Made by a program: the position numbers and the translations under genes. The notes under the pieces were generated by a model. The model was not told where the DNA came from. It did no database searches and saw only the letters and a program-made list of their open reading frames with translations. Positions 2,002-14,817 of a stretch of DNA of 64,000 nt are shown here, in pieces (positions within the stretch are counted from its first letter, which is position 1; each line of letters starts with the position of its first letter). Location: sequence record NC_052653.1; one strand, 5' to 3'. Source of the DNA: Escherichia phage vB_vPM_PD06.

Positions 2002-2205
2002 TTAGATGATCTGCATATCCTCCATGATAATTTCTAATTTCCAAACAAGATGATCTAAGCTCCCTGATAAAAATGATTCCGATACATAACCGCCATCGGA
2101 CACCGTAGCAAGGATCTCGCCATTTGCTTGCTCTTTGATTTGAACATCCAGGCGGTTAGCCTTTGCTTTATTCAGGACGGCGATCAGGCGGTTAGCTGTA
2201 GTCAT
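2002..2205 (-). CDS. Hypothetical protein (67 aa)
   Basis: Six-frame ORF; box+hairpin element immediately upstream. Confidence 0.5.
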   Translation of the reverse strand: MTTANRLIAVLNKAKANRLDVQIKEQANGEILATVSDGGYVSESFLSGSLDHLVWKLEIIMEDMQII

Positions 2206-2227
2206 GGTGTTTTCCTTCCAGTTGTGA

Positions 2228-2264
2228 GCGGCACCATTGCCGCCCTACGTGATACATCTTACAC
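2228..2264 (-). repeat. Conserved box+hairpin intergenic element
   Basis: Hairpin GCGGCA-CCAT-TGCCGC then box CCTACGTGATACATCTTACACT; on - strand reads TAAGATGTATCACGTAGGGCGGCA. Confidence 0.6.
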
Positions 2265-2289
2265 TATCCGATACATTGTGCAAGCTATT

Positions 2290-2481
2290 TTAGATCTCGT
2301 CACCTATATAATCAGATCTATTCTTTTCTGTCATACGCTTAAGCAATTTTTGCATATGGCTTATGGCTTGCAATGTATCTTCTTCCAGGCTTGAATCGAG
2401 ATAATCAGGATCATTCTTTACCTTGCTATGATTGTGATACCGCAACGCTGCTAATACCTTTCTAACTTGTTCTGCATTCAT
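2290..2481 (-). CDS. Hypothetical protein (63 aa)
   Basis: Six-frame ORF in leftward array. Confidence 0.5.
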   Translation of the reverse strand: MNAEQVRKVLAALRYHNHSKVKNDPDYLDSSLEEDTLQAISHMQKLLKRMTEKNRSDYIGDEI

Positions 2482-2630
2482 TTTTATTACTCCTTAAAAC
2501 CAGGTGCCAACCGTTTCCAATAGGTCACTGACTACCAGGACAACATTAATCAGCACATATTCAACCAGGAAGGGAATAAGCGCCAGCGTTGCTACTACGA
2601 TCCCCATTGTGATGATTACCTTTCTCATGG

Positions 2631-2915
2631 TTAGCGGTTTACCTGGGCTTTACCGTTTACGGTCATCGGTATGGCCTCAAGGTCTGGATCTTCCTTAAGG
2701 TCGCGTGCAAGCTCACCGCACCGGACACCCTCGAATCCGTAGTACTCTGTTGTGCCGTCCTGGAAAGTTTTAGCGGCAAGGCATAGGCGATAATTAACGC
2801 CGATCCGGTTTATTGCGTTGATATCGGTTAGCGTGATGGATTCTGGCAACTCATTAGCCAGTACAGGCGCGTTAATACCAACAACCAGGGCAACTACTGC
2901 GATCATCTTTTTCAT
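2631..2915 (-). CDS. Hypothetical secreted protein (94 aa)
   Basis: N-terminus MKKMIAVVALVVGINAPVLA looks like a signal peptide. Confidence 0.6.
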   Translation of the reverse strand: MKKMIAVVALVVGINAPVLANELPESITLTDINAINRIGVNYRLCLAAKTFQDGTTEYYGFEGVRCGELARDLKEDPDLEAIPMTVNGKAQVNR

Positions 2916-2944
2916 GCGTCTATCCTCTTCCTATTGCGTTTAAT

Positions 2945-2960
2945 GGGGCGTTACCGCCCC
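2945..2960 (-). repeat. GC-rich intergenic hairpin (element family, hairpin only)
   Basis: GGGGCG-TTAC-CGCCCC. Confidence 0.45.
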
Positions 2961-2969
2961 GCTTATGGT

Positions 2970-3206
2970 TTATTGATTGATGTTATGATGAAAGTTATTT
3001 TCTTCAATAGCTTTTAAAATAAAAGCCGTGATCGCTTTCGTATCTACTTGTTCGAACGTATCAGAATAAGCCCAATAATAATCATCCCCTACTTTCGGCG
3101 GGTAAACCTGGACAAGGAGATCGCCACCTGGTTGATCTATAAGCTCAACATGCAAGCCGGATGATTCAGCGGTTTTAACGGCGTTTAATACTGTTGCAAT
3201 ACTCAT
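2970..3206 (-). CDS. Hypothetical protein (78 aa)
   Basis: Six-frame ORF. Confidence 0.55.
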   Translation of the reverse strand: MSIATVLNAVKTAESSGLHVELIDQPGGDLLVQVYPPKVGDDYYWAYSDTFEQVDTKAITAFILKAIEENNFHHNINQ

Positions 3207-3226
3207 AATCTTTTCCTTTCTGATGT

Positions 3227-3242
3227 GGGGCGTTGCCGCCCC
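3227..3242 (-). repeat. GC-rich intergenic hairpin (element family, hairpin only)
   Basis: GGGGCG-TTGC-CGCCCC. Confidence 0.45.
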
Positions 3243-3250
3243 TTTGTTGA

Positions 3251-3550
3251 TTAGATCGCTGTTTCCAGTAGTTCGGCTAACGTCTTACCGCCTGATAGTT
3301 GGTCTAACGTTTGCTCTTCTGGCAAGAAATTAGCTGATATTAAACCGACTTGATTCCCTTTGTGCCAGTTAGCCTGGCGGATGATTCCATCCTTTAAAGA
3401 TTTTACCGCCATTGTGCAACCGTCGCCAAATGATTCATTTTTATGATCCATTACTTCATAAGCGCCCAGCTTGCTGCTGTTAGGCACCATTAACGCGAAT
3501 ACATCACCAACAACCAGTTTTTCTACGGTAACAATAGCGATAGTTTCCAT
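3251..3550 (-). CDS. Hypothetical protein (99 aa)
   Basis: Six-frame ORF. Confidence 0.6.
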   Translation of the reverse strand: METIAIVTVEKLVVGDVFALMVPNSSKLGAYEVMDHKNESFGDGCTMAVKSLKDGIIRQANWHKGNQVGLISANFLPEEQTLDQLSGGKTLAELLETAI

Positions 3551-3568
3551 TTTACTTTCCTCATTATC

Positions 3569-3607
3569 GGCGGCACCATTGCCGCCCTACGTGGTAAATA
3601 TTAGCAC
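3569..3607 (-). repeat. Conserved box+hairpin intergenic element
   Basis: GGCGGCA-CCA-TTGCCGCC then CTACGTGGTAAATATTAGCAC. Confidence 0.6.
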
Positions 3608-3631
3608 ACTGGCGATCTGTGTCAATACTTT

Positions 3632-4018
3632 TTATTCAATATAAATCAAATTATCTTCACCAATGTAAGCCGACACGTTCGGCATAAACTTAGCTGCATT
3701 GGTTAGGCGGTTCGCCGTGTTAGTGGTGTATATTTCAGGGCGATCCCAAAAGCCTACGCCGTGACCGTTACGGGTAAAATGTAAATCATTCCCGATCTGG
3801 TTGGCTGTTGCGCCGTCGCTCATTGCCTCAGAGATAGCGGCAAGATTAGCATTAATAAAGGCTGTTACATCCTGGGCGATCCGTTCGTCCGCGCTAGGAG
3901 AAAAATCATAATCGTCTAAGTTTTCAATAAAATTACCTTCATGATCCCTTGCTGATTCAGCAAAAATAAAGGCTTCTTTATAACCGTTGATGATTTCAAT
4001 AATCATTTCTGTTTTCAT
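3632..4018 (-). CDS. Hypothetical protein (about 128 aa; start uncertain, track ORF extends to 4105)
   Basis: Internal ATG at 4018 (MKTEMIIEI) preferred because the longer N-terminal extension overlaps a separate small ORF. Confidence 0.5.
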   Translation of the reverse strand: MKTEMIIEIINGYKEAFIFAESARDHEGNFIENLDDYDFSPSADERIAQDVTAFINANLAAISEAMSDGATANQIGNDLHFTRNGHGVGFWDRPEIYTTNTANRLTNAAKFMPNVSAYIGEDNLIYIE

Positions 4019-4067
4019 GCTGTACGCTCGACAATAATAATAGTTTGCGGGATCTCGTTTTCTACTA

Positions 4068-4229
4068 CTAACAAGGCTTTTTCTGTGTGATAGATATTTT
4101 AACACGTTGTAAAGTAGCGGTAAAATCTTTCATTTCATTATGCGCGGATTTAGTACAATGCCAGATCTCAGGTTTACCAATTTGCAAGCCGCGTAAAAAT
4201 TCCGTTTTACCTGTCTTATTCGTGATCAT
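4068..4229 (-). CDS. Small hypothetical protein (53 aa; not in ORF track)
   Basis: ATG at 4229 preceded by AAGGTG RBS; hand translation MITNKTGKTEFLRGLQ... has no internal stop. Confidence 0.3.
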   Translation of the reverse strand: MITNKTGKTEFLRGLQIGKPEIWHCTKSAHNEMKDFTATLQRVKISITQKKPC

Positions 4230-4239
4230 TTGTTTCACC

Positions 4240-4344
4240 TTAGCCGATACCGTGGGAAGATAGGATCATATTAGCCATAGTTGCAACCATTCCAACCGAT
4301 AATGCCATGCCAACTACTACAACCGTGAAAATTTTTTCTAACAT
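4240..4344 (-). CDS. Small hydrophobic peptide (34 aa)
   Basis: Track ORF 4240-4440 overlaps the element; internal ATG at 4344 has GAGGATGG RBS; MLEKIFTVVVVGMALSVGMVATMANMILSSHGIG is one predicted TM helix. Confidence 0.35.
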   Translation of the reverse strand: MLEKIFTVVVVGMALSVGMVATMANMILSSHGIG

Positions 4345-4362
4345 GATTCCATCCTCATTAAT

Positions 4363-4406
4363 GGGCGTTGCCTTATTGCCCCGCCCTATGTCGTACACTT
4401 TACCAG
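4363..4406 (-). repeat. Conserved box+hairpin intergenic element
   Basis: GGGCG...CGCCC hairpin then CTATGTCGTACACTTTACCAG. Confidence 0.55.
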
Positions 4407-4507
4407 ATCCGCGCCTGGTGTCAACAATTATTTTGTACATTCTGAGATTGTCAAGGTTTTTGATAAAACAACAGAATTGAGAGTTTTTCCCATCTTCTGA
4501 TCCTCTG

Positions 4508-4771
4508 TTAGCATACGATAGCGATCACGCCGCCACAAATAAAAGGTAAATCAAAACGGTCTAACTTGCAAGCTATTTTTAAACGAAAGGCAACATAAAA
4601 GAAAAGTTGCAAACAATCGATCATTGTGTTAGCTGTTGAAACGCTGCCAGCATTAAACACCACCACGCCCACGGCGTTAAACGTTGCGTTACTCACGAAA
4701 GCGAAAAGGCAAGCGATCACGGTGGCGATCATAATGTTGCGTTTTGTCAATCTGTAAATGATGTTTTTCAT
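4508..4771 (-). CDS. Hypothetical membrane protein (87 aa)
   Basis: Six-frame ORF; hydrophobic segments. Confidence 0.55.
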   Translation of the reverse strand: MKNIIYRLTKRNIMIATVIACLFAFVSNATFNAVGVVVFNAGSVSTANTMIDCLQLFFYVAFRLKIACKLDRFDLPFICGGVIAIVC

Positions 4772-4782
4772 TCTGTCATGTT

Positions 4783-4820
4783 GGCGGCATCATTGCCGCC
4801 CTACGAAATACATTCTACCC
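4783..4820 (-). repeat. Conserved box+hairpin intergenic element
   Basis: GGCGGCA-TCA-TTGCCGCC then CTACGAAATACATTCTACCC. Confidence 0.6.
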
Positions 4821-4840
4821 GATTTATAATTGTTGTCAAA

Positions 4841-5110
4841 CTATTTTTTCAAGCTCGACCAGTCAAAACACGGGGCGATCTCGTTAAAACTTGTGCCCTG
4901 TAAAGCACATAATTTTTTAGCAATAGCCGCCGTAACCTGGCGCTGTACGCGCGGATCTGCTACTGATTGGAGAAAGTAGGCGGTTTTATATGTGATCATG
5001 CTTTCGCCTGTTTCCTTGTTAACGTGATGCACTATTTTAGCCTTATCATCTTTTACCAGGGTGTAACCGGATTCGATGGCCTTGATTGCAACGTCCAATG
5101 ATATTTTCAT
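4841..5110 (-). CDS. Hypothetical protein (89 aa)
   Basis: Six-frame ORF. Confidence 0.6.
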   Translation of the reverse strand: MKISLDVAIKAIESGYTLVKDDKAKIVHHVNKETGESMITYKTAYFLQSVADPRVQRQVTAAIAKKLCALQGTSFNEIAPCFDWSSLKK

Positions 5111-5129
5111 GATTTACCTCTTTATTGAC

Positions 5130-5150
5130 GGCGGGGAATACTCCCCCGCC
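5130..5150 (-). repeat. GC-rich intergenic hairpin (element family)
   Basis: GGCGGGG-AATACT-CCCCCGCC. Confidence 0.45.
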
Positions 5151-5157
5151 TCATTAA

Positions 5158-5328
5158 TTATTCTTCATCGTCGCCGTTATAGTATTCAATGCCATTTTCA
5201 TCGGTTACGGTGATGTTAACACCACCGATAGTAACACGATCACGGGCAAATGTCATGGCTTCATTTAAATCTTCAGACCAAAAAATATTGTGACCTTTGC
5301 GCGATACGTAAAACATAGTCGGGATCAT
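5158..5328 (-). CDS. Small hypothetical protein (56 aa; not in ORF track)
   Basis: Hand translation MIPTMFYVSRKGHNIFW...NGDDEE with no internal stop; ATG at 5328 after AAAAGAGAAACAAATC; fills an otherwise empty gap. Confidence 0.4.
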   Translation of the reverse strand: MIPTMFYVSRKGHNIFWSEDLNEAMTFARDRVTIGGVNITVTDENGIEYYNGDDEE

Positions 5329-5351
5329 GATTTGTTTCTCTTTTGTTGTGA

Positions 5352-5393
5352 GCGGGAAACCATTTCCCGCCCTATGTGGTAAACTTTACTACG
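5352..5393 (-). repeat. Conserved box+hairpin intergenic element
   Basis: GCGGGAAA-CCA-TTTCCCGC then CCTATGTGGTAAACTTTACTAC. Confidence 0.65.
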
Positions 5394-5412
5394 TTGTTTG
5401 CGTGCTGTCAAA

Positions 5413-5697
5413 TTATTTTTTAATGTTTTGCCCTACAAAATTGATCACTTCCTTAAGCTGTCTCTCTGTCATGATCGTACCTGGTAACTCTTCTTTAATT
5501 TCTTCCGGTAAATAGATATTACCGCGCCAGGTTAACAAACAACCGTTTTGATCTTCGCAGATAGAATAAGAAAACATCCACTCGCAATCATTTTCAAGCT
5601 CCCAAAAACACAAAAAGTCTTCTTTCCCTAAGTTTTCAACGGTTAAACATAATCCGCGACGTGCTGCATAATTAGTTAGGCTTTTTGTGATTTTCAT
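5413..5697 (-). CDS. Hypothetical protein (94 aa)
   Basis: Six-frame ORF. Confidence 0.6.
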   Translation of the reverse strand: MKITKSLTNYAARRGLCLTVENLGKEDFLCFWELENDCEWMFSYSICEDQNGCLLTWRGNIYLPEEIKEELPGTIMTERQLKEVINFVGQNIKK

Positions 5698-5718
5698 GAT
5701 TTTTCTCTCTTCTGTTAG

Positions 5719-5761
5719 GCGGGGAAACCATTTCCCCGCTCTATGAGATACAATATATTAC
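5719..5761 (-). repeat. Conserved box+hairpin intergenic element
   Basis: GCGGGGAAA-CCA-TTTCCCCGC then TCTATGAGATACAATATATTAC. Confidence 0.65.
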
Positions 5762-5780
5762 TTATCAGGTGTGCTGTCAA

Positions 5781-6104
5781 TCAATAATCTTTAAGATTTT
5801 CTACATTTACAAAAGGGCGTTTATTTTCTAAGTTTTCGCCGTACCATTGCCCCATGTTGATTTCTGCGGTGCGCAACCAGGACATGCCGCGTTCTATCTT
5901 TTTGCTCGCAATGTCGATCCGGCTTTTGCATAGTGCTTTCGCTTGCAATGTAAAAACACTATTGCCCTGTAATGCTTCCAGGTCATCATGTGCAAGGCGG
6001 TATTCTTTAAAGCCTGATTCTATCATTTCAATCGCATCAAGGAAACGCGCACGATGATAGAAAAAATCAGAGTTATCCAAATAAACACCGATCACAGATT
6101 TCAT
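5781..6104 (-). CDS. Hypothetical protein (107 aa; start moved to internal ATG)
   Basis: ATG at 6104 (MKSVIGVYL) preceded by AAAAGGG RBS. Confidence 0.55.
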   Translation of the reverse strand: MKSVIGVYLDNSDFFYHRARFLDAIEMIESGFKEYRLAHDDLEALQGNSVFTLQAKALCKSRIDIASKKIERGMSWLRTAEINMGQWYGENLENKRPFVNVENLKDY

Positions 6105-6204
6105 AATTTTACCCTTTTGTTTGCGGCCTTTGCCGTTTTCAAGATATAGTTTAAAGCATAACAAAAAATTATCAAGCCTTTAAAGCGTACAACTATAAAA
6201 CCTA

Positions 6205-6324
6205 TTAAAACACAATGTATAATAACATGGCTATAGTAGCAATACAACATAAAACCATGCTTGTTTTCCTTCCTTCCTCATATGCTGGATTTATTACGCT
6301 ATACTGTACGGGAATAATTTTCAT
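6205..6324 (-). CDS. Small membrane peptide (39 aa; not in ORF track)
   Basis: ATG at 6324 after TTAAGGAAACAGC RBS; hydrophobic C-terminus CCIATIAMLLYIVF. Confidence 0.35.
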   Translation of the reverse strand: MKIIPVQYSVINPAYEEGRKTSMVLCCIATIAMLLYIVF

Positions 6325-6333
6325 GCTGTTTCC

Positions 6334-6429
6334 TTAATGTCTTAAAACGTGGTTTACAATAGAAACAAGCATACAGAAGAAAAAAGATCCTGTCAATAAG
6401 ATACCGAAAAATAAATGTAAATAGGGCAT
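6334..6429 (-). CDS. Small membrane peptide (31 aa; not in ORF track)
   Basis: ATG at 6429 after TTTAAGGAGTAAAACC RBS; MPYLHLFFGILLTGSFFFCMLVSIVNHVLRH. Confidence 0.35.
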   Translation of the reverse strand: MPYLHLFFGILLTGSFFFCMLVSIVNHVLRH

Positions 6430-6433
6430 GGTT

Positions 6434-6736
6434 TTACTCCTTAAAAAAATCATTGACAATTAAACTGATAACGCCCAGCACCAGATCACCAGGTAGCGCC
6501 GCGCTTTCGTTGTTGCTTGTTTGCACTTCCTCACTAGTACCCGCATGATAGATCGCATGGTAAGCAATAGTATAATAACCTTTCGTTATTTCTTTAAGAT
6601 TAATGATTAGCACGTTATTTGTTTCATCTTGAAACAATTTAGCGGTGATAGTATTGTTTTCTTTTACACTATCGACTTTTATTGATGGATCATTTACACC
6701 AGAAAAAAGAAAAAACGTTTTAGCTATGCCGTTCAT
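6434..6736 (-). CDS. Hypothetical protein (100 aa)
   Basis: Six-frame ORF. Confidence 0.6.
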   Translation of the reverse strand: MNGIAKTFFLFSGVNDPSIKVDSVKENNTITAKLFQDETNNVLIINLKEITKGYYTIAYHAIYHAGTSEEVQTSNNESAALPGDLVLGVISLIVNDFFKE

Positions 6737-6783
6737 GTAGTTCTCCTTTGTTGGGTGTATCTTATAACGTGCTTTCTATATTG

Positions 6784-7185
6784 TCAACCTTTTATCTCGG
6801 TACATTTTGCTAGGGTATACGTTGCAAGTGCTGACACTAGTTTTTCATTGCTACGATCTGCGGCGGTGCTGTGTACCTTTTGAATACTTTTTAGCCACGG
6901 CGTAAAATTTTGAGTCGTTAGCACACTGGTAATAATTTCACATGGTACATCTTCATTTAAGCCATTAACAATAGATTTATCTATTTTTGCCGTTAATTGT
7001 GTAACAGCACCATAAGCGATCATGTGTGAATCCTCCATGATTTCATCGGGGATCGCGTTATTAATGATCATGACGTTTTCCATTGCATCAACGGCGCTTA
7101 ATTCTGCTACTGTGGAGGATATCGCCGCGCTAGATGTTCCAACCATGCCAAAAGAGATTAAACCAGCGATCAATAATTTTTTCAT
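6784..7185 (-). CDS. Hypothetical secreted protein (133 aa)
   Basis: Start MKKLLIAGLISFGMVGTSSAA (signal-peptide-like) with GAGG RBS. Confidence 0.6.
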   Translation of the reverse strand: MKKLLIAGLISFGMVGTSSAAISSTVAELSAVDAMENVMIINNAIPDEIMEDSHMIAYGAVTQLTAKIDKSIVNGLNEDVPCEIITSVLTTQNFTPWLKSIQKVHSTAADRSNEKLVSALATYTLAKCTEIKG

Positions 7186-7193
7186 TTCTTGCC

Positions 7194-7376
7194 TCATATA
7201 TGTTTTATTGAGATTATATTGTCACTATATACAACGTTTTTCAACGTGTCAATAAAAATTTTATTGCCTTCAATCCCCAGGATCACGCCGCTAGTTATGA
7301 AACCATATTGATCACGATATCGGGCGCATAACCTTTGTCCCTGGGCTAGTGCCTTGCTTATTTCGTCTAATTTCAT
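7194..7376 (-). CDS. Hypothetical protein (60 aa)
   Basis: ATG after ACAGGAGC RBS. Confidence 0.55.
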   Translation of the reverse strand: MKLDEISKALAQGQRLCARYRDQYGFITSGVILGIEGNKIFIDTLKNVVYSDNIISIKHI

Positions 7377-7465
7377 TTTTAAAGCTCCTGTAAAGCTGTC
7401 TAACGTGGTTTATAGGCTTATCCTGGCGTTACCCTTGCCTATAAGCAACAAGCCTCTATATAAGC

Positions 7466-7494
7466 TAAAAGGGCGCTTATTGCGCCCTTTTTGT
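7466..7494 (-). terminator. Intrinsic terminator (bidirectional in form)
   Basis: AGGGCGC-TTATT-GCGCCCT hairpin 7470-7488 flanked by A-run and T-run; same hairpin sequence as at 1024-1042. Confidence 0.5.
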
Positions 7495-7631
7495 TATTCG
7501 TTCCAGTATCTTTTGCTGCTGCGATCTCTTTTTGTTTTGTTCCGCTTATCGCCTTTCTTGGTGATCTCTTCGTTCCAATCTTTACGCGCTTTATTGCGGT
7601 TGAATTTTTCGATCTGCTGTGATGCGTTCAT
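7494..7631 (-). CDS. Small basic protein (45 aa; not in ORF track)
   Basis: ATG at 7631 after GAGAGGAAAAAC RBS; MNASQQIEKFNRNKARKDWNEEITKKGDKRNKTKRDRSSKRYWNE. Confidence 0.4.
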   Translation of the reverse strand: MNASQQIEKFNRNKARKDWNEEITKKGDKRNKTKRDRSSKRYWNE

Positions 7632-7645
7632 GTTTTTCCTCTCGA

Positions 7646-8005
7646 TTACGCTACGTTATGATATTTTGCCAAAGTTACGATCATGCTTGCAATATATAAC
7701 CAATAATTTTCCCGCTCACGGGTAACGGTTGTTTCTTTGCTTGTTTCTTTTATGTACTTCCATTCAATTAATAATTGATCGATCTCGTTATAATTAAAAG
7801 CGATATTGATATCTGACGGTAAACCTTGTAACCAGCTTTTAACAGCTTGTACCATATTGTTATTATAACGATCACGATTAGATTGATACCAGTATTCAGA
7901 GTTAAAACGGCGCATCAGTTCGGTGATTTTTTCTTTTTCGGTTGTAGTACCATCAAAAGAAATAGCCGACAAAATGTAAGTTTTAATTGCTTTTACTGAT
8001 TTCAT
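7646..8005 (-). CDS. Hypothetical protein (119 aa)
   Basis: Six-frame ORF. Confidence 0.6.
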   Translation of the reverse strand: MKSVKAIKTYILSAISFDGTTTEKEKITELMRRFNSEYWYQSNRDRYNNNMVQAVKSWLQGLPSDINIAFNYNEIDQLLIEWKYIKETSKETTVTRERENYWLYIASMIVTLAKYHNVA

Positions 8006-8025
8006 AATCTTATCTCTTTATTGAT

Positions 8026-8046
8026 GGCGGGAAACCATTTCCCGCC
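8026..8046 (-). repeat. GC-rich intergenic hairpin (element family)
   Basis: GGCGGGAAA-CCA-TTTCCCGCC, same hairpin as at 5352 and 8907. Confidence 0.55.
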
Positions 8047-8091
8047 GTTGTTGTTACTTTACTTATAAATGATGCTACTGTCAAGCGGATA

Positions 8092-8262
8092 TTATTTATT
8101 TTTTAACGTTAATGTTCCCAGCTTATCAGCGTGACGCAGACCAGGAAAGATCCATTTTCCTGATTCATCTTTCACCGGGGCTTTAAGCGTAGCGCCCAGG
8201 TTGGCGGCGTTAACTTTACGTGCAACGTTGCGAGCGGCTTCACGGGTGGCGAAAGTGATCAT
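8092..8262 (-). CDS. Small hypothetical protein (56 aa; not in ORF track)
   Basis: Hand translation MITFATREAARNVARKVNAANLGATLKAPVKDESGKWIFPGLRHADKLGTLTLKNK; RBS AAGAGAAGAGGAAA. Confidence 0.4.
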   Translation of the reverse strand: MITFATREAARNVARKVNAANLGATLKAPVKDESGKWIFPGLRHADKLGTLTLKNK

Positions 8263-8285
8263 GATGTTTCCTCTTCTCTTTGTTA

Positions 8286-8307
8286 GGCGGTGGGCTATTC
8301 CACCGCC
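8286..8307 (-). repeat. GC-rich intergenic hairpin (element family)
   Basis: GGCGGTGG-GCTATT-CCACCGCC; compensatory changes keep the stem. Confidence 0.5.
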
Positions 8308-8352
8308 TTAATGAATATAGTTTACTTTATTTTACCAGGTTTGCAAGTAGTT

Positions 8353-8568
8353 TTATGAAATAATTGTCAAAGTAAAATCATAATCTTTTGACAATTTATA
8401 TTGCACCTTGTTACCGTATATGTCACCTTTACGTAAAGATCCACGGATACCGATAACATCCTTCACGTCTTTTAAATTTTTCACGCCTGTAATGTCTTTG
8501 TTGAAATACTCGTCATCTGAAAATAAAACTTGACTTGCATTTTTTAACAGTGTGCGGATATTAGCCAT
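8353..8568 (-). CDS. Hypothetical protein (71 aa; start moved to internal ATG)
   Basis: Track ORF start overlaps the element; ATG at 8568 (MANIRTLLKN) has GAGAGAG RBS. Confidence 0.5.
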   Translation of the reverse strand: MANIRTLLKNASQVLFSDDEYFNKDITGVKNLKDVKDVIGIRGSLRKGDIYGNKVQYKLSKDYDFTLTIIS

Positions 8569-8588
8569 TTTGATAATCTCTCTCACTA

Positions 8589-8629
8589 GGGGCGGCACTA
8601 TTGCCGCCCTATGCATTACATTTTACTGA
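8589..8629 (-). repeat. Conserved box+hairpin intergenic element
   Basis: GGCGGCA-CTAT-TGCCGCC then CTATGCATTACATTTTACTGA. Confidence 0.6.
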
Positions 8630-8655
8630 TTTTAGTTATCTTGTCAATATTATTT

Positions 8656-8883
8656 TTAGTTTAATTGATCCAGGCACAACAAGCGATCAACATTTAGATC
8701 GGTTAGGCTAATCGTTGGCACCTGGTAGGATTCGATGTACTCAACGCTCGACCATTGCCCGAAATTAGCGACCGCCCAGCTATTCAAGGAAGAGTGAAGA
8801 TCATCGCCTTTCTTCTCGGTGATAACTGCTACTACCTGGGAGATTCCAACCGTACCGGATACGCGAACAATAACGATAGCCAT
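8656..8883 (-). CDS. Hypothetical protein (75 aa)
   Basis: Six-frame ORF. Confidence 0.6.
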   Translation of the reverse strand: MAIVIVRVSGTVGISQVVAVITEKKGDDLHSSLNSWAVANFGQWSSVEYIESYQVPTISLTDLNVDRLLCLDQLN

Positions 8884-8906
8884 AATGATAACCTTTCTTT
8901 GATTTG

Positions 8907-8947
8907 GCGGGAAACCATTTCCCGCCCTATGTGATAAACTATACCAG
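8907..8947 (-). repeat. Conserved box+hairpin intergenic element
   Basis: GGCGGGAAA-CCA-TTTCCCGCC then CTATGTGATAAACTATACCAG. Confidence 0.65.
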
Positions 8948-8974
8948 ATTAAAAAACGTTGTCAACTGTTTTTA

Positions 8975-9214
8975 TTACATTCCTACCATAGCGGCACGGA
9001 TTGCAGTTTTACTATACTTGAAACCATCAGGTGTATGAGTGATTCCGTCCTGTTTTAATCTGTAGCACATTAGATCCGCCGCTTTATCTTTATTGCCACA
9101 CTCATTTATTAAACCTACAGCGTATAAGTATAACGATTCATCGTTATTAATCCAAAGGCTTACATTCCAATGAGTTTTGTTTTTGTGACCGTTGTACATT
9201 TTAGATTTAGCCAT
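8975..9214 (-). CDS. Hypothetical protein (79 aa; start moved to internal ATG)
   Basis: ATG at 9214 (MAKSKMYNGHK); longer track ORF overlaps the element. Confidence 0.5.
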   Translation of the reverse strand: MAKSKMYNGHKNKTHWNVSLWINNDESLYLYAVGLINECGNKDKAADLMCYRLKQDGITHTPDGFKYSKTAIRAAMVGM

Positions 9215-9237
9215 GATGTTAATCTCTTTTTCAGTGA

Positions 9238-9278
9238 GGCGGGAACTATTCCCGCTCTCTATGTAATACATTTTACGC
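9238..9278 (-). repeat. Conserved box+hairpin intergenic element
   Basis: GCGGGA-ACTA-TTCCCGC then TCTCTATGTAATACATTTTACGC. Confidence 0.6.
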
Positions 9279-9303
9279 TTTTTATTCGTGCTGTCAATGC
9301 TTT

Positions 9304-9669
9304 TTATAAATCTTTTTTACGTTTAACATCGCTTGCATGACTGTATACAGCGATCCCATTATCACGGCAAAAACGGGAAAGATACGCGCCGCGTGAAAAC
9401 TCTTTACCTTCCATATTAACAACCTTGCTAAACTCTTCCAGGGCAACGGTATCAAAATGATCACCATAACCATATTGAAACGGAACGTTAACGACTTCAA
9501 TCAGTTTACCGCCGATCTCAACGTCAACCATCAAAGAGAAATAAGTATTACCATACGACTTTTGAAACCAGCGACGGGCGCTAATATGTACCGCTTCAAT
9601 GCTGGATAGCTCAATTTTAGCAGTGTTAGCCAGGGTAGCATAAGCAGAAACATTGATATTTTTAGCCAT
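9304..9669 (-). CDS. Hypothetical protein (121 aa)
   Basis: Six-frame ORF with consensus sigma70 promoter upstream. Confidence 0.65.
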   Translation of the reverse strand: MAKNINVSAYATLANTAKIELSSIEAVHISARRWFQKSYGNTYFSLMVDVEIGGKLIEVVNVPFQYGYGDHFDTVALEEFSKVVNMEGKEFSRGAYLSRFCRDNGIAVYSHASDVKRKKDL

Positions 9670-9706
9670 GATTTTATTCCTTAGTAACGCTTTAATTTAT
9701 ATAAGC

Positions 9707-9734
9707 ATTATAGCTTACTGATTTCAGGTGTCAA
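9707..9734 (-). promoter_or_regulatory. Consensus sigma70-type promoter (leftward)
   Basis: On - strand: TTGACA (9734-9729), 16-bp spacer, TATAAT (9712-9707). Confidence 0.6.
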
Positions 9735-9756
9735 GTGATTTTTTATTTCACTTTAT

Positions 9757-9792
9757 GGGGCGTTGCCCCGTTCTATGTGGTATATATTACGG
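9757..9792 (-). repeat. Conserved box+hairpin intergenic element
   Basis: GGGGC-GTT-GCCCC then GTTCTATGTGGTATATATTACGG; lies upstream of the sigma70 promoter, i.e. at the 3' side of the preceding gene. Confidence 0.55.
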
Positions 9793-9815
9793 TGCTTGTT
9801 TGCATATGTCAAGCC

Positions 9816-10370
9816 TTACACAATGCAATTTTCATAATTTTTTAAGGCTTGTCTTTTTTCCTCTTCCGTCGGCATGTATGGCTGGATCTCTTCCTCTTCC
9901 AGGGTAGGCATGATTTCTTCCTCTTCCTCCTGGTCGCCCTGGTCTTCCTCTTGCGCTATGGTAACAAGTTTATTGATCTTCTCCTGGGCTTTAATTAGTT
10001 TTGCATCTAGCACCATTTTAGCGGTGTTGTATACAGTCCATGCCATGCGCTTTTCTGCGTATGCCTTATCTAGTGCGGCTAATTTAGCGGGATACTCTTC
10101 CAACACCTTAAAAGCCGGATCAATGCTGTACAAGGGATTATTTTTAGCGTCATCGCTTGGATCTGCGGCGCTTGCAATGTCAGCGTTACCATTCGCCAGC
10201 CATCCAGGGCGAACGGATCTCGTCCTGGTGTTGCCGTTGCTCTTTGCCGCTCGATTTCCTATCTGCTCCCCGCTATACCCTACCATGTGATCGATCATGT
10301 CATCTGGTATTATGCGCGGATCATTTGCGTCATGCTTTACCCAGGACTGGATCACATATTCACGCCCCAT
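9816..10370 (-). CDS. Hypothetical acidic protein (184 aa)
   Basis: Six-frame ORF; Glu-rich C-terminal region. Confidence 0.65.
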   Translation of the reverse strand: MGREYVIQSWVKHDANDPRIIPDDMIDHMVGYSGEQIGNRAAKSNGNTRTRSVRPGWLANGNADIASAADPSDDAKNNPLYSIDPAFKVLEEYPAKLAALDKAYAEKRMAWTVYNTAKMVLDAKLIKAQEKINKLVTIAQEEDQGDQEEEEEIMPTLEEEEIQPYMPTEEEKRQALKNYENCIV

Positions 10371-10371
10371 G

Positions 10372-10632
10372 TTAGTTCGCCTCTTCTGTTAGTAGTTTAC
10401 ATACCTTAAACATGCTTGCCGCGTCTTTTGACGGTAGCCAGCCTATCCGATACACTCCAGGATCTGGATTAGTTACATCAGTCAGTTGCGCGTTACGATG
10501 ATTAAAAATAGTGTAACCGCCGCCAGCACGGGGATAAACATTATCTTTAAACCTGATAGCGTATCTCGCCAGGTCGAACGTTGTAGCATGTTCAAAAGCG
10601 ATCACATTATCAAAAACTTTTAGAAAAAACAA
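10372..10632 (-). CDS. Hypothetical protein (86 aa; TTG start)
   Basis: TTG start at 10632 preceded by GGGGAGGATAATC RBS. Confidence 0.55.
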   Translation of the reverse strand: MFFLKVFDNVIAFEHATTFDLARYAIRFKDNVYPRAGGGYTIFNHRNAQLTDVTNPDPGVYRIGWLPSKDAASMFKVCKLLTEEAN

Positions 10633-10668
10633 GATTATCCTCCCCAGCGTTTAAAGCCCGTTGCACGG

Positions 10669-10782
10669 TTATTTTTTAACTCTCGTTTTAGTCTCTTGCA
10701 ACGGTTTACAAGTGCAAACCGTGCCGGAGTCGTAACAGTAGCGCCGTTTTTGGTGTGGATACTCATTACATATTGTTTCATA
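10669..10782 (-). CDS. Small basic peptide (37 aa; not in ORF track; weak)
   Basis: ATG at 10782; MKQYVMSIHTKNGATVTTPARFALVNRCKRLKREVKK; weak RBS. Confidence 0.2.
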   Translation of the reverse strand, partial: YETICNEYPHQKRRYCYDSGTVCTCKPLQETKTRVKK

Positions 10783-10790
10783 AAGTTTTA

Positions 10791-10835
10791 CCCTATGTAA
10801 GCGGGAACAATTCCCGCTTTAAGATAGCTTATCAG
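10791..10835 (-). repeat. Variant box+hairpin element (hairpin splits the box)
   Basis: CCCTATGTAA + GCGGGAACAATTCCCGC + TTTAAGATAGCTTATCAG. Confidence 0.45.
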
Positions 10836-10859
10836 GTTTTAGTGCAATGTCAACCGTTT

Positions 10860-11222
10860 TTATTCGTAAATTTTACCGCTTTCTACCCATACCATAACAC
10901 GGCGCATGTTATCCCATGCATCTTGTCGCAGATTTAAGGCATGCAATTCTTCCGTGGTGCTCATACCTGGAACGGGCTTGCTATATGTTACAAAGAGATC
11001 GCCAGCATATTCATAAGCCAGGGTAAGATCACATTGAATCATCTTTTTAATCATAGCATCAAGCATCATATTAGCGGCATGTTGATCACGTTTCAGCGGT
11101 AACGTTGCGATCTGTGTGCGATAGCTTTCGATCCGTGCATCCACTGCATCACGCGAAAGGTTTTTCACGTCATCGCGGAAAGATACCAGATTAAACATGA
11201 TAGTATTGATTTGCTTGCTCAT
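10860..11222 (-). CDS. Hypothetical protein (120 aa; start moved to internal ATG)
   Basis: ATG at 11222 (MSKQINTIMFN) with AAGGG RBS; longer track ORF overlaps the element. Confidence 0.55.
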   Translation of the reverse strand: MSKQINTIMFNLVSFRDDVKNLSRDAVDARIESYRTQIATLPLKRDQHAANMMLDAMIKKMIQCDLTLAYEYAGDLFVTYSKPVPGMSTTEELHALNLRQDAWDNMRRVMVWVESGKIYE

Positions 11223-11244
11223 TGCATTACCCTTTTTTTGTTTT

Positions 11245-11287
11245 GGCGGGGAAGTATTCCGCCGCCCTATGTGATACATCTTATCAG
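11245..11287 (-). repeat. Conserved box+hairpin intergenic element
   Basis: GGCGGGG...CCGCC hairpin then CTATGTGATACATCTTATCAG. Confidence 0.6.
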
Positions 11288-11325
11288 TTTAAAAAACGTT
11301 GTCAAGAATATTTTTAAAAATAATT

Positions 11326-11607
11326 TTAGCTGTATGATCCGCACCGCTCGCAATAGTGATCATCGTCGTCATCTGCCACCTGGCTGATAAAATGATCTAC
11401 CTTTGTTTTTAGGTTATTGTAATTGTTTTCTACTTCCTTTAGTCGTTCCTGGTAGTATTCCAGGGCTTCAATATACGCCGCCTCTTCTGTTTTTTCACGC
11501 ATAGCTAAATTCATGCCGCGCGTATCATCATACAGCCAAAAGCCATCGGTGCACTCACTCATTGAAAGAGTAGGGCTTAACTCTTTATGACTAATTACCT
11601 TGCTCAT
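11326..11607 (-). CDS. Hypothetical protein (93 aa)
   Basis: Six-frame ORF; C-terminal CERCGSYS. Confidence 0.6.
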   Translation of the reverse strand: MSKVISHKELSPTLSMSECTDGFWLYDDTRGMNLAMREKTEEAAYIEALEYYQERLKEVENNYNNLKTKVDHFISQVADDDDDHYCERCGSYS

Positions 11608-11617
11608 AGTGTGCGCC

Positions 11618-11722
11618 TTATAGAATGATTGAAATAATAACTGACACTACAATCCAAAAGGGAACGGCAAGAATGATAGCGTTAATCGTTCCAACCGTCA
11701 AGCTATTCTCTTTCTTGATCAT
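11618..11722 (-). CDS. Small hydrophobic leader peptide (34 aa; not in ORF track)
   Basis: MIKKENSLTVGTINAIILAVPFWIVVSVIISIIL; first ORF downstream of the leftward sigma70 promoter. Confidence 0.3.
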   Translation of the reverse strand: MIKKENSLTVGTINAIILAVPFWIVVSVIISIIL

Positions 11723-11850
11723 CGTTATCAACCTTTTATAAGTAATGTTATTGTGACGGTGGATTGTGGAGATCCTCACCTTTGCCCGTCTTGCATTGCA
11801 CCCGCCTATTGTTTATTGTCGTTGTGCCTTGCCCCCCCTCGACAAGATGA

Positions 11851-11879
11851 ATACTACGCTACCAGGTGAGGAACGTCAA
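11851..11879 (-). promoter_or_regulatory. Sigma70-type promoter driving the leftward array
   Basis: On - strand: TTGACG (11879-11874), 17-bp spacer, TAGTAT (11856-11851). Confidence 0.5.
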
Positions 11880-11989
11880 CCATTTTTTTAATCTTTTTTC
11901 ATTTCTTTTTTGCTTGCTATATATGAAGGAAACGGCTATCATCTTTCTACCGCGCCAACCAGGGCGCACAACAAAGAAAGGGCGATACC

Positions 11990-12256
11990 ATGACAAATAC
12001 TCCTTTACATCTCATGTACTCACTGGGCTGGCAAGGCGGCACGGTGCACCAGGTAGCAAGCGCAACGGGCTTAAAGGTTGAAACCGTTCTCAACCTGGGC
12101 GATCATAAGGTGGAAGAGATAGATCATTTTGATACGTTCGCAAATGGTTATCTATGGGCTTGCAGTGGCGGCGGGGAAAGCAAGATCCCACCAGGGGCGC
12201 GGGGCGACATGTATTTTTGGTTAGGTGTCCTATCCTGGCAAGAAAACAAAAAATAA
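11990..12256 (+). CDS. Possible small protein (88 aa), uncertain
   Basis: Six-frame ORF in the divergent control region; weak RBS; overlapping alternative frames. Confidence 0.2.
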   Translation: MTNTPLHLMYSLGWQGGTVHQVASATGLKVETVLNLGDHKVEEIDHFDTFANGYLWACSGGGESKIPPGARGDMYFWLGVLSWQENKK

Positions 12257-12258
12257 TC

Positions 12259-12287
12259 TTGACAAGCCCAGGGATCGGGCTTATACT
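12259..12287 (+). promoter_or_regulatory. Consensus sigma70-type promoter (rightward) with no obvious ORF downstream
   Basis: TTGACA (12259-12264), 17-bp spacer AGCCCAGGGATCGGGCT, TATACT (12282-12287). Confidence 0.55.
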
Positions 12288-12520
12288 GTTTTACATACAG
12301 AAGAGGAAACGCCACCCCCACGGCGTAAAGGCGGGGCTAACATACCAGGGGGGGCACTGGTTGGAAGGTTGATCGCCGGTAGCTCGTCTAAAATAAATTT
12401 GTAAAGAAATGTAAAGATAAAAATAATCGCTTGCTTTTGTTGTTGGTTATGCTATTCTTATTGTATGGCGAGGGGACACGGGAGCGCGAGACAAACACCG
12501 CCCCTGCGCGTTATTCTGTA

Positions 12521-12631
12521 AATGAGAAAAATTCTCATTTGCTAATGATTCTCATTCTCTTAGTGAGAATGCTTATCATTTACATAATTAAATGATAATG
12601 ATTCTCATTTACAAATGAGAATGATTATCAT
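12521..12631. repeat. Cluster of three palindromes sharing a GAGAAT/ATTCTC core
   Basis: AATGAGAA-aaa-TTCTCATT (12521-12539); CATTCTC-ttagt-GAGAATG (12553-12571); ATGATAATGATTCTCAT...ATGAGAATGATTATCAT (12592-12631). Confidence 0.6.
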
Positions 12632-12655
12632 ACGCATACCCATAAAAACACGAAA

Positions 12656-12857
12656 TTGAACTTTTCATTTTTGATTTTTCTACGGAAAAAGGCAAAAAAA
12701 CTTTAAATAAACTGGGGAATTTTTAAAAAATTGAAGTTTTCATTTTCAAAATCTGGATAGAAATACGTACAAAAACTTTAAATAATTTTGACCAAACTTG
12801 AACTTTTCATTTTCAAAATTTGTACCCAAAAATCTGTAAAAACTTTAAATAATTTTG
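12656..12857. repeat. Three tandem ~67-75 bp direct repeats
   Basis: Units start at 12656, 12731, 12798; each TTGAAC/G-TTTTCATTTTCAAAAT...AAAAACTTTAAATAATTTTG. Confidence 0.6.
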
Positions 12858-13071
12858 TACTTTTTATAAAAATGATTTTACTGTTCTGTTATAAGTAGTA
12901 GTTAAGAGATAGTATGTCTTTTAAAGATCAGATACCATAGTCCAACAAACAAATTAAATACTTTATTAACAGGGTGTAGAATACTACTTACTCTGGATAT
13001 ACTGTGCAGAGGGTGAATTTCCGTACATGAAACCCACACCCCTTTTTATAAAAATAAAAATTTTCAAAATA

Positions 13072-13623
13072 TCAGGAAATATCAGATTGTGCTTTTAGAT
13101 AAACAGCAAGGTCTGTATGCCATTTTCCTAAAAGATTTTGTCCTTTCCAACAATCCTTATTTTCCACGTCCCGATCCCACATCCCCATTTTGATACCATA
13201 AATAGAATCATAAGGGCTTGCCTCTACGAACTCCTTATCTGCGTAAGCGATAAGTTTATTTTTGAGATCTTCATTTTGTGTGTATTTAAGATACAAACCA
13301 CGCTTGACAATCTTCTCCCGTAAAGAAGTCCAAGTAGCTTCATCGTAATCTTTAACTAATCTGCCTAGTCGTTTATAATATGCTTGTTCTTTTTCTCCTG
13401 TATATCTTAGATCTCCGGTTAAAATAGAAGATGCAATACTGTAATCATAAAACAAACATGCTTTTCTCCACATCATATATTGTTCCACACAAGTAAATTC
13501 AACAGAACTTGTAATAGAATTATTATACTTGGGAGCTAAAGGTTCAATAAAAGATGATAGATACCAGTTGCTAAATTCATCTTTTGCCGAGAAGAAGAAC
13601 ACATACTTATCAGTAATCCGCAT
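13072..13623 (-). CDS. NADAR (YbiA/DUF1768-like) domain protein
   Basis: FFFSAKDEFSNWYLSSF...EQYMMWRKA and GLYLKYTQNEDLKNKLIAYADKEFVEASPYDSIYGIKMG align with E. coli YbiA as recalled. Confidence 0.7.
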   Translation of the reverse strand: MRITDKYVFFFSAKDEFSNWYLSSFIEPLAPKYNNSITSSVEFTCVEQYMMWRKACLFYDYSIASSILTGDLRYTGEKEQAYYKRLGRLVKDYDEATWTSLREKIVKRGLYLKYTQNEDLKNKLIAYADKEFVEASPYDSIYGIKMGMWDRDVENKDCWKGQNLLGKWHTDLAVYLKAQSDIS

Positions 13624-14817
13624 TTACATCTCCTTATTATATACTAATTTGCCACCATGTTGTGTAATAATTTCTTGAAGATTTTCCAAATCAGAAACAC
13701 TTACTGTTTCTGTATAACCGTCTTTCAACTCTCTTTCCGTTAAAATACCAGTTTTTAATTTTTTCTTTATAGCTCTTTCAGCAGCCTTACATTGTTTCAC
13801 TGTGCTAAAATCATATAAACAAATACGCTCCATAAAAAACATATTACAACTATTTTGACTATTTAATCGCCTATCACTATCTTTAGCTATACCAAACTTA
13901 AGAGCCACTATAATATCATTATCTTTAACAATATTAATATATAATTGCTGTTGATTATGACCAGCACACTGTGGACAACCTTGACCGAGGCTTAATAAGT
14001 TATTAGCCCTCCCTGTCTGTTCCCCATGCACAAGACAAAGATATTTAAACTTACCGTGACTTCTAGACGGTTTACCGATCCAACCTACCCAGACATACCC
14101 TTGCCCTTCTACTTCCTTTTTTACCCTATAGGTGATCTGGTCTTCTGTATACCGATAGTTCCCACAACGACACGGAATGCACCCTCGTTTAAGGTTATTT
14201 CCTTCAGAGTAAAATTTACCATCACAAACACCTGCTTGAACATATTCATCATGAGAGCAAACAGGACATTCAACCATCCAGATACTATGCCTGCATCCTT
14301 TACTCCGTGTTCCTGTGTTAGTGAAGATAGTGCCTTCCTTAAATTTCCCTGTAGAAAAGAAATCTGCAATATGTTGATCGTCGGACATTGTTAGTGCCTT
14401 CCTTGTATTCTCCCCCCTACATTGTGGACAACCTCGACCGCCTTTAAATTGATGAATTGCTGTACTTTGCCATCTATTCCCACAATGGCACAACAAATCA
14501 AGTTTTGTTTTATTCCCTTTCCATTCTCCAACGTACCCTAACACCTGATACCCCTTCTTCTGTGCTATCTCTTCCAAGATCGGCAATTCTGTTTCCCATG
14601 TTAACGGCTTCTTACCAGAACAGATAGGACAACTGTTACCGTGCTTGAAATTACTAATACTACAAGTCTTCCATTCATGTTCCTGCCTACAGCGTAGAAT
14701 CATTTTCGTATCACAACCTATAAACGGTTCAACATATCCTAGGATCTCAATCCCTTTATTATTCGCAATAGGTTGACACTCTTCTTTATATTGTTCCCAT
14801 GATTTTGGTGCTGCCAT
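13624..14817 (-). CDS. Multi-zinc-ribbon protein with C-terminal T5orf172-like domain
   Basis: Five CPxC knuckles (SCPICSG, GCPQCRG, ECPVCSH, GCIPCRCG, GCPQCAGH); C-terminal ALKFGIAKDSDRRL resembles T5orf172/GIY-YIG-like. Confidence 0.5.
   Translation of the reverse strand: MAAPKSWEQYKEECQPIANNKGIEILGYVEPFIGCDTKMILRCRQEHEWKTCSISNFKHGNSCPICSGKKPLTWETELPILEEIAQKKGYQVLGYVGEWKGNKTKLDLLCHCGNRWQSTAIHQFKGGRGCPQCRGENTRKALTMSDDQHIADFFSTGKFKEGTIFTNTGTRSKGCRHSIWMVECPVCSHDEYVQAGVCDGKFYSEGNNLKRGCIPCRCGNYRYTEDQITYRVKKEVEGQGYVWVGWIGKPSRSHGKFKYLCLVHGEQTGRANNLLSLGQGCPQCAGHNQQQLYINIVKDNDIIVALKFGIAKDSDRRLNSQNSCNMFFMERICLYDFSTVKQCKAAERAIKKKLKTGILTERELKDGYTETVSVSDLENLQEIITQHGGKLVYNKEM

Follow-up and report, generated by a model that had tools for sequence, protein, structure and literature searches.

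What binds the repeat-rich, non-coding hub in the genome of Escherichia phage vB_vPM_PD06, and what process might it control? The hub occupies positions 12521 to 12857 of a 64,000-nucleotide stretch of sequence record NC_052653.1 (hereafter the window), and its G+C content is 24% versus 38% for the window as a whole. A preliminary description of this DNA reported three palindromes followed by three direct repeats, likened the arrangement to an array of operators bound by a dimeric protein, with iterons alongside, and offered three possible roles: a replication origin, a packaging-related site, or a transcription control region. The feature is real, conserved, and non-random. The explanation we favor, with slightly better than even confidence, is that the palindromes form an operator array for the host protein Fur and that the direct repeats are iteron-like units for a putative phage protein. 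Both would be parts of a control locus, conserved in rV5/phi92-like phages, that encodes only one small open reading frame and starts with two predicted sigma-70 promoters, one of which would make a covarying RNA of about 95 nucleotides (nt).

The palindromes and the direct repeats were all located at the positions previously given, but the number of palindromic units requires revision. The first palindrome (12521-12539) is AATGAGAAAAATTCTCATT, the second (12553-12571) is CATTCTCTTAGTGAGAATG, and the third (12592-12631) spans 40 base pairs (bp) with 19-nt arms that are 95% complementary. The true repeating unit is a dyad of 15-19 bp, TGAnAAT-N-ATTnTCA, that is present five times, with starts at 12523, 12540, 12564, 12593, and 12616. 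The 12553-12571 palindrome is merely the junction of dyads 2 and 3, and the 40-bp palindrome is composed of dyads 4 and 5 in mirror orientation. The pattern TGAGAATNATTCTCA has 14 matches in the 64 kb when up to three mismatches are permitted, versus 5.6 +/- 2.3 in shuffled sequences; with no more than two mismatches, all five matches are in the locus, position 737 aside. Read as 7-1-7 inverted heptamers (TGATAAT-N-ATTATCA), the five sites agree at 11-13 of 14 positions, and both of the sites in the 64 kb that reach 13 of 14 are located in the array.

A matrix for Fur was built by an unseeded search for palindromic 19-mers in 13 Fur-regulated promoter regions of E. coli K-12 (fepA-fes, fepD-entS, fepB-entC, fur, tonB, cirA, sodA, fecA, fecI, fhuF, ryhB, fhuA, and exbB). 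The promoter coordinates were guided by published footprints (PMC2189734), and no phage sequence was included. The consensus recovered de novo, AATGATAATCATTATCAAT, is the Fur motif, and the recovered host sites include those of ryhB (AATAATAATCATTCTCATT), fhuA (TATAATAATCATTCTCGTT), and fecI (TATGAGAATGGTTATCATT). E. coli sites score 2.7-21.8 bits in a leave-one-out analysis (median 17.9), and the phage dyads score 23.4, 21.1, 17.8, 16.0, and 14.5 bits, which is within or above the host range. Four of the five boxes also have a secondary site shifted by exactly +6 bp (Table 1), and overlapping sites with a 6-bp shift are a hallmark of Fur clusters (PMC2189734). Seven sites of at least 10 bits were observed, versus 0.04 per 130 nt in sequences simulated at the local composition. 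Among 1.22 Mb of unrelated viral loci, three sites score at least 16 bits (0.25 per 100 kb), and no cluster is present. A BLAST comparison of the array with 5,426 E. coli genomes was uninformative, yielding weak matches of 26-35 nt (E = 1-4) that fall nearly always in unannotated plasmid DNA. We conclude that the palindromes represent five near-perfect predicted Fur sites in tandem, which share sequence identity with E. coli Fur operators.

Dyads of this type might instead be the operators of a phage-encoded dimeric repressor and merely resemble Fur boxes. They reside in a phage regulatory region near the small conserved open reading frame (ORF) gp224, which has no Pfam domain but includes a stretch, GGTVHQVASATGL, that resembles a helix-turn-helix by eye, and many of the copies prefer GAGAAT to the canonical GATAAT. 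However, the natural ryhB, fhuA, exbB, and fecI operators use the same half-sites (ATTCTCATT / TATGAGAAT), and the GAGAAT/ATTCTC half-site is native to host operators because it was recovered in host promoter sites. A tblastn search with E. coli Fur as the query revealed nothing similar encoded in the window. Moreover, the same dyads are present in T5-like phages and in many unrelated contigs, whereas gp224 homologs were found only in rV5/phi92-like phages, and phage PVP-SE1, which has a single box, carries an unrelated DUF7170 ORF in place of gp224. We therefore regard a phage repressor of this kind as improbable. The gp224 protein was also considered as the factor that binds the dyads or the direct repeats, and it was rejected since it is absent from T5-like phages, is replaced in PVP-SE1, and is found in Serratia phage Kashira as a gp224-like ORF together with repeats of the Vequintavirinae type. 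The anatomy of an operator array next to iterons stands, but a phage early protein is not the best candidate for binding the dyads. Host Fur fits them best because they match host operators and recur in T5-like phages without a neighboring phage ORF.

The recurrence of strong boxes extends well beyond this locus. In the whole genome of a close relative, phage VEcB (OZ035773.1, 148,885 bp), 11 of the 13 sites that score at least 14 bits are either in this locus or in a second non-coding hub. The second hub is about 1.8 kb long, largely free of ORFs, and about 10 kb from the locus (VEcB ~90,900-92,500; L298:40900-42500). Positions 264-1057 of the window (29.6% G+C) represent part of this hub, which extends past the left end of the window, and the Fur matrix identifies two sites in them, one at 735 (16.3 bits) and one at 793 (17.5 bits). 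Two more site pairs, with scores of up to 21.2 bits, are evident in the full genome. The two hubs bracket a block of small leftward genes of about 10 kb (window ~1058-11880). Repeats of TAGATAG and of CAACAAATAG are also found in the second hub, where one of the boxes is abutted by an AAATATC motif.

The T5-like phage Gostya9 has five sites of at least 18 bits (18-23 bits) in the untranslated part of its left terminal repeat, where they are located beside DnaA boxes (L003:1848-2600). A total of 580 phage records contain sequence similar to this region, and most of these genomes have it twice. A comparative preprint by Davison on the T5 'injection stop' region describes the palindromes and the DnaA boxes and leaves Fur unmentioned. 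A scan of IMG/VR for perfect boxes returned at least 120 contigs and 118 new loci (L179-L296), some of which may be prophages or host flanks because IMG/VR contains both. Among the matches listed, at least 49 of the 118 loci carry a minimum of two strong boxes in a span of 200 bp, at least 16 have three or more, and at least six have four to seven, with most arrays of three or more boxes inside ORF-free gaps of 700-1270 bp. One of these loci (L202:2542-2752) carries seven boxes on a contig of 21% G+C. A factor common to the hosts of these diverse phages is the simplest explanation for the recurring boxes. More tentatively, and with considerable doubt, we suggest that arrays of top-affinity Fur boxes in large non-coding hubs might be a widespread and previously undescribed device of virulent phages, found in rV5/phi92-like phages, T5-like phages, and many uncultivated contigs, that serves either for iron sensing, with early or replication functions gated accordingly, or for Fur sequestration, with host iron metabolism reprogrammed as a result.

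Sequestration could even be the chief purpose of the array. With about 11 strong boxes per genome, dozens to hundreds of replicating phage genomes would titrate Fur, derepress host iron uptake and RyhB, and favor iron-dependent phage enzymes such as a putative ribonucleotide reductase. Multicopy Fur boxes do derepress Fur-regulated genes, an effect on which the Fur titration assay is based. Box scores that equal or exceed those of the best host operators, copy numbers that expand from one to five per array between lineages, the presence of two hubs per genome, the lack of overlap with a predicted strong promoter in the phage studied here, and the multiple boxes at 49 or more uncultivated viral loci, whose larger arrays mostly occupy long ORF-free gaps, are all as expected for a decoy. 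However, a short lytic cycle leaves little time for derepressed uptake to pay off, and lineages with a single box such as PVP-SE1 hold this box at one fixed spot beside a promoter, which fits regulation better. A role primarily as a decoy therefore appears unlikely.

Table 1. Coordinates of the predicted features of the locus and of its flanking genes.
Feature	Position in window	Strand	Sequence or composition	Remarks
gp225	11326-11607	minus		
gp224-family small ORF	11990..12256	+		88 amino acids, phrog_19316, no Pfam domain
P1, sigma-70-type promoter (predicted)	12259..12287	+	TTGACA-17-TATACT	11/12 matches
Element 1, ~95-nt structured RNA (predicted)	12294..12391	+		covarying
Direct pair	12400-12407, 12410-12417	+	TGTAAAGA	read from sequence
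P2 (predicted)	12431-12436, 12453-12458	+	TTGCTT, 16-nt spacer, TATTCT	read from sequence
Element 2, GC-rich leader (predicted)	12465..12518	+	invariant core GAGACAAACACC, end TTATTCTG	
Fur box 1 (predicted)	12521..12539		AATGAGAAAAATTCTCATT	14.5 bits
Fur box 2 (predicted)	12538..12556		TTTGCTAATGATTCTCATT	17.8 bits; +6 secondary site 12544, 11.8 bits
Fur box 3 (predicted)	12562..12580		AGTGAGAATGCTTATCATT	16.0 bits; +6 secondary site 12568, 9.7 bits
Fur box 4 (predicted)	12591..12609		AATGATAATGATTCTCATT	23.4 bits, top of 64 kb; +6 secondary site 12597, 9.6 bits
Fur box 5 (predicted)	12614..12632		AATGAGAATGATTATCATA	21.1 bits; +6 secondary site 12620, 13.8 bits
Repeat unit 1	12653..12727			75 bp
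Repeat unit 2	12728..12794		block AAAAACTTTAAATAATTTTG	67 bp; dyad ATTTTCAAAAT at 12742-12752
Repeat unit 3	12795..12861		block AAAAACTTTAAATAATTTTG	67 bp; dyad ATTTTCAAAAT at 12809-12819
Right edge of locus	13060..13090		third ATTTTCAAAAT dyad, AAATATCAGGAAATATCAG pair	
gp223, NADAR/YbiA-like protein	13072-13623	minus		

The array and the repeats are the right half of a larger conserved module (Table 1). The relatives compared were phAPEC8, PVP-SE1, Klebsiella phages phi1_175008 and FKP3, Serratia phage Kashira, Erwinia phage pEa_SNUABM_55, and several IMG/VR contigs. Stephanstirmvirinae and Vequintavirinae have a common layout in which a small ORF is followed by P1, element 1, P2, element 2, one to five boxes, and three repeats. 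All of the enterobacterial relatives examined carry one to five boxes directly after element 2, the best of which scores at least 21.3 bits. The spacing between boxes is often 29 bp in relatives and is 17-29 bp in the window. In Vequintavirinae, a clear promoter is located 10-17 nt downstream of the box and is directed toward the repeats (e.g. TTGCTT-17-TAGAAT and TTGACT-17-GATACT). Relatives likewise retain a promoter at the position of P1 and the same arrangement of the TGTAAAGA pair followed by P2. Of the three roles proposed in the preliminary description, transcription control is the best supported, by these flanking promoters.

The RNA that the strong promoter P1 is predicted to produce, element 1, includes a hairpin with compensatory changes and an invariant long-range CGGCG:CGCCG helix, and it could form a pseudoknot through CCCC:GGGG, CCAA:TTGG, or CCAG:CTGG pairing. 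In an alignment of 20 sequences, 93% of the cells pair, versus 21-50% when the partners are slid. Compensatory changes are present at eight pairs, and none of 500 shuffles matched the observed values. The identity remains 84-86% even in Mydovirus/Certrevirus-type phages, and the element was observed in Stephanstirmvirinae, Vequintavirinae, and one Aeromonas Plateaulakevirus. A search of the window with Rfam 15 at gathering thresholds returned only a group I intron located elsewhere and nothing for element 1, and permissive searches of 11800-13150 gave only chance hairpin matches (E >= 0.1).

Element 2 is conserved in sequence as far as Pseudomonas phage KPP10 (Nankokuvirus; L167:1470-1535), but a consensus structure for it is unsupported (RNAalifold, -0.62 kcal/mol). 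The PHIRE-derived 'phage promoters' of phAPEC8 (L004:402-421, 1291-1310, and 1930-1949) are GC-rich and hairpin-like, with the sequence GTAGGGCGGCAATGGTGCCGCTCA, and an annotated sigma-70-type promoter immediately precedes one of them. In appearance they are closer to conserved stem-loops of 5' leaders than to promoters. We also considered these motifs as kin of the direct repeats and rejected this relationship, as the sequences are unrelated. Transcriptome papers on phage PAK_P3 report small RNAs at other loci, and none can be assigned to the KPP10 homolog of the locus.

The direct repeats have TTGAAC/G cores at 12656, 12731, and 12798, a spacing of 75 and 67 bp, and 66-72% identity to the reference copy. 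In each copy, a variable spacer separates two blocks that are nearly identical from copy to copy. The 64 kb contain exactly three occurrences of the block AACTTTAAATA, all in the repeats, and the perfect 5-1-5 dyad ATTTTCAAAAT also occurs three times, always at the locus, versus 0.26 expected. The 22-mer TTGAACTTTTCATTTTCAAAAT has two matches versus none expected, and its version in unit 1 has diverged. As RNA, the three units fold no better than shuffled sequences (z = -0.06, +0.40, and +1.01), and on this basis we rejected the possibility that they are RNA modules. A function as general promoters was also rejected because the 64 kb hold no further copies of the blocks and no pair of sigma-70 hexamers fits the repeats.

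In related phages, the repeats are present and keep their number and position, while their sequence drifts. Triplets with a spacing of 63-78 bp are found in phages that represent different genera: in the window, in PVP-SE1 and Kashira, and at loci L020, L060, and L096. In phAPEC8 and at locus L027, two full units are about 140 bp apart, with a degenerate partial unit between them in phAPEC8, and KPP10 has three 26-nt units with a spacing of 31-32 bp. The repeat sequence differs by subfamily: Vequintavirinae and KPP10 have in common a GAAAA..(C/T)GATCGAGTAC-like core, and a dyad of the TTTT(C/G)AAAA type is retained in the repeats of both subfamilies, alongside a block specific to the lineage. 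Because number and position are kept while sequence drifts, the units would be expected to be iteron-like DNA sites that co-evolve with a putative phage-encoded DNA-binding protein. In many lineages, KPP10 among them, two to four short repeats of the AAATATC type were also noted where the non-coding locus ends on the right (L167:2095-2170; L055:2095-2140; L056:2075-2115). A candidate terminator on the + strand at 13011-13047 is weak (z = -0.84), and we make no claim for it.

Repeats with these characteristics raise the possibility that the locus is a replication origin, with the units serving as iterons for a phage initiator, AT-rich DNA serving as the unwinding element, and transcripts from P1 and P2 activating or priming replication. 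This role is compatible with Fur binding at the dyads, in which case the boxes would form an accessory module for a host factor. The constant number and position of the drifting tandem repeats, their low G+C content (22%) and that of the adjoining downstream tail (28%), and the promoters directed into them would suit such a site. The origin of rV5-like phages is unmapped (PMC3606486), the same boxes adjoin DnaA boxes in T5-like phages, and an AAA+ ATPase with weak similarity to DnaC or to clamp loaders is encoded 2 kb away. However, cumulative GC skew has its minimum near 18000 in the window and turns at 36, 75, 104, and 141 kb in VEcB, where the locus is at 81 kb, such that this check for an origin revealed no turning point at the locus in either sequence. 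The test is a weak one because skew follows transcription and gene orientation in these phages, as reported for rV5, where changes in GC skew track transcription (PMC3606486). DnaA boxes and sites for integration host factor (IHF) are not conserved and are absent from the window, and only Kashira has a DnaA box, TTATCCACA. No initiator gene is found in conserved synteny; the neighbors encode a NADAR protein, a CapR/T5orf172 endonuclease-like protein, and the AAA+ ATPase, and the right-hand neighbors differ among relatives. In addition, units of 67-75 bp are far longer than classical iterons of 17-22 bp. We consider an origin possible but rather doubtful.

Three evenly spaced non-coding repeats could also constitute a packaging site, as do pac boxes and the three R sites in cosB of lambda, and the circular record of Klebsiella phage phi1_175008 was opened right beside the repeats. 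However, the record starts of other relatives are scattered inside genes and therefore reflect arbitrary linearization. No terminase gene was identified beside the locus, and the rightward gene block is about 5 kb away, near 18000, where GC skew turns. The proposal of a packaging-related site thus finds no support in the record starts, and we judge it very improbable.

Returning to host Fur as the candidate for the dyads, we propose that Fur hinders rightward transcription into the repeats, through repression or as a road-block, because the order of Fur box, promoter, and three repeats is conserved. Host Fe2+-Fur would occupy the array soon after DNA entry. The transcription that is blocked might start at P2, at the weak divergent promoter-like hexamers within boxes 4 and 5 (TTCTCA-18-TATCAT, 9/12 matches), or, in Vequintavirinae, at the promoter just 3' of the box. 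Rightward transcripts from P2 would reach the repeats only by crossing the Fur array, and the function controlled by the repeats would thereby be coupled to the iron status of the host. As a non-exclusive alternative, a replicating phage population would represent many high-affinity Fur sites and could be a Fur sink. The arrangement suggests that a lytic phage reads or manipulates host iron status.

Several observations weigh against this proposal. The boxes overlap no predicted strong promoter, since the array begins about 55 nt downstream of the predicted P2 start and the hexamers inside the boxes are weak. Their spacing of 17-29 bp is unlike that of host operators, which are mainly overlapping sites shifted by 6 bp. 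The protein that would bind the direct repeats is putative, and the type of the small upstream ORF does not co-vary with the type of repeat. The open-access literature yielded no binding or expression data on these phages. Furthermore, no Fur box is present in KPP10 or in Aeromonas phage phiA047, though parts of the RNA and leader module are kept there, and the boxes are therefore an enterobacterial accessory module that is non-essential to the hub.

The window derives from a phi92-like phage (Justusliebigvirus), and the 1-kb stretch around the array and repeats has 97-98% identity to phi92, alia, PHB05, and about 50 other Justusliebigvirus genomes. The equivalent locus of phi92 is between gp223 and gp225. 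In the window, these two genes flank a gap of about 1.46 kb with gp224 as its sole annotated ORF, and the two leftward gene blocks are separated by about 1.2 kb that is non-coding except for this ORF. An ORF of the gp224 family is immediately 5' of P1 also in phi92-like, Phapecoctavirus, Klebsiella, and Serratia relatives. A promoter-like site at 11879-11851 marks the restart of the leftward block. The GenBank record of alia already includes two 'repeat_region' features at the locus, with no function assigned. To the right of the locus, no synteny is kept among the relatives compared. There, gp222 (13624-14817, minus strand) combines CapR-homology repeats with a T5orf172 domain, and its PHROG matches are to endonuclease families; it looks like a mobile endonuclease inserted beside the locus, and local gene content varies among relatives. 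The group I intron mentioned above is at 29540-29825 on the + strand (Rfam RF00028, 70.4 bits, E = 8e-16), and ARAGORN found no tRNA in the window.

If host Fur does bind these sites, well-studied coliphages of the type used in therapy (phi92, rV5, PVP-SE1, and T5 relatives) would be wired into the iron regulon, and their performance in vivo could depend on iron, the nutrient that is most restricted in infected animals. To our knowledge, no binding factor has been named for the T5 injection-stop palindromes since their description in 1987. Fur is a concrete candidate protein that, if correct, would provide their first molecular identity. The locus also reveals a conserved, structured phage RNA of about 95 nt and a conserved triple repeat. 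In the open-access literature, we found no paper that ties Fur boxes to virulent phages, to phi92/rV5-like phages, or to the T5 region.

Among known systems, the Fur operator clusters of E. coli (fhuF, entS, ryhB, fhuA, and iucA) resemble the phage array in the 19-bp dyad with its 7-1-7 TGATAAT-N-ATTATCA arrangement, in the hexamers GAGAAT, GCAAAT, and GCGAAT, in the secondary sites shifted by 6 bp, in a multi-site span of about 110 bp, and in an AT-rich setting. Unlike these clusters, the phage boxes are discrete and 17-29 bp apart, are located in a non-coding hub of a virulent phage, have scores at the very top of the host range, and do not overlap a predicted strong promoter. Fur boxes on phage DNA have precedents in the nohA site of Qin, which scores 22.3 bits (PMC2189734), and in the regulation of stx1 by fur, which is the subject of an entry in the reference list of the same paper. 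However, each of those is a single operator that controls cargo of a temperate or cryptic prophage, rather than an array in a non-coding hub of a virulent phage.

The T5 'injection stop signal' region (Repeat Region 3, left terminal repeat) shares the identical motif (AATGAGAATGATTATCATT and AATGCGAATCATTATCATT), arrays of five or more, and a large conserved untranslated region. T5-like arrays differ in being located beside paired DnaA boxes in the terminal repeat, and they are accompanied neither by three 70-bp repeats nor by elements 1 and 2. The direct repeats can be compared with the iterons of the lambda origin and of plasmids and with the R sites of lambda cosB, which are also tandem repeats with internal dyads in AT-rich DNA, with a fixed copy number and lineage-wise drift. 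However, the phage units are 67-75 bp long (31-32 bp in KPP10) versus 16-22 bp, and the locus has no adjacent initiator or terminase gene and no GC-skew, DnaA, or IHF signature.

The conceptually closest precedent is provided by lytic phages that carry several sites for a host master regulator in their control or replication regions. These include Spo0A boxes in phi29 and Nf (PMC2731898) and CtrA boxes in phages of alphaproteobacteria (PMC9437464), which let host physiology gate the infection program. As in those phages, multiple predicted host-regulator sites are enriched at the locus described here and are kept among related virulent phages. What distinguishes this locus is that the signal would be iron, sensed via Fur, and that the predicted sites are located beside small-RNA promoters and triple repeats.

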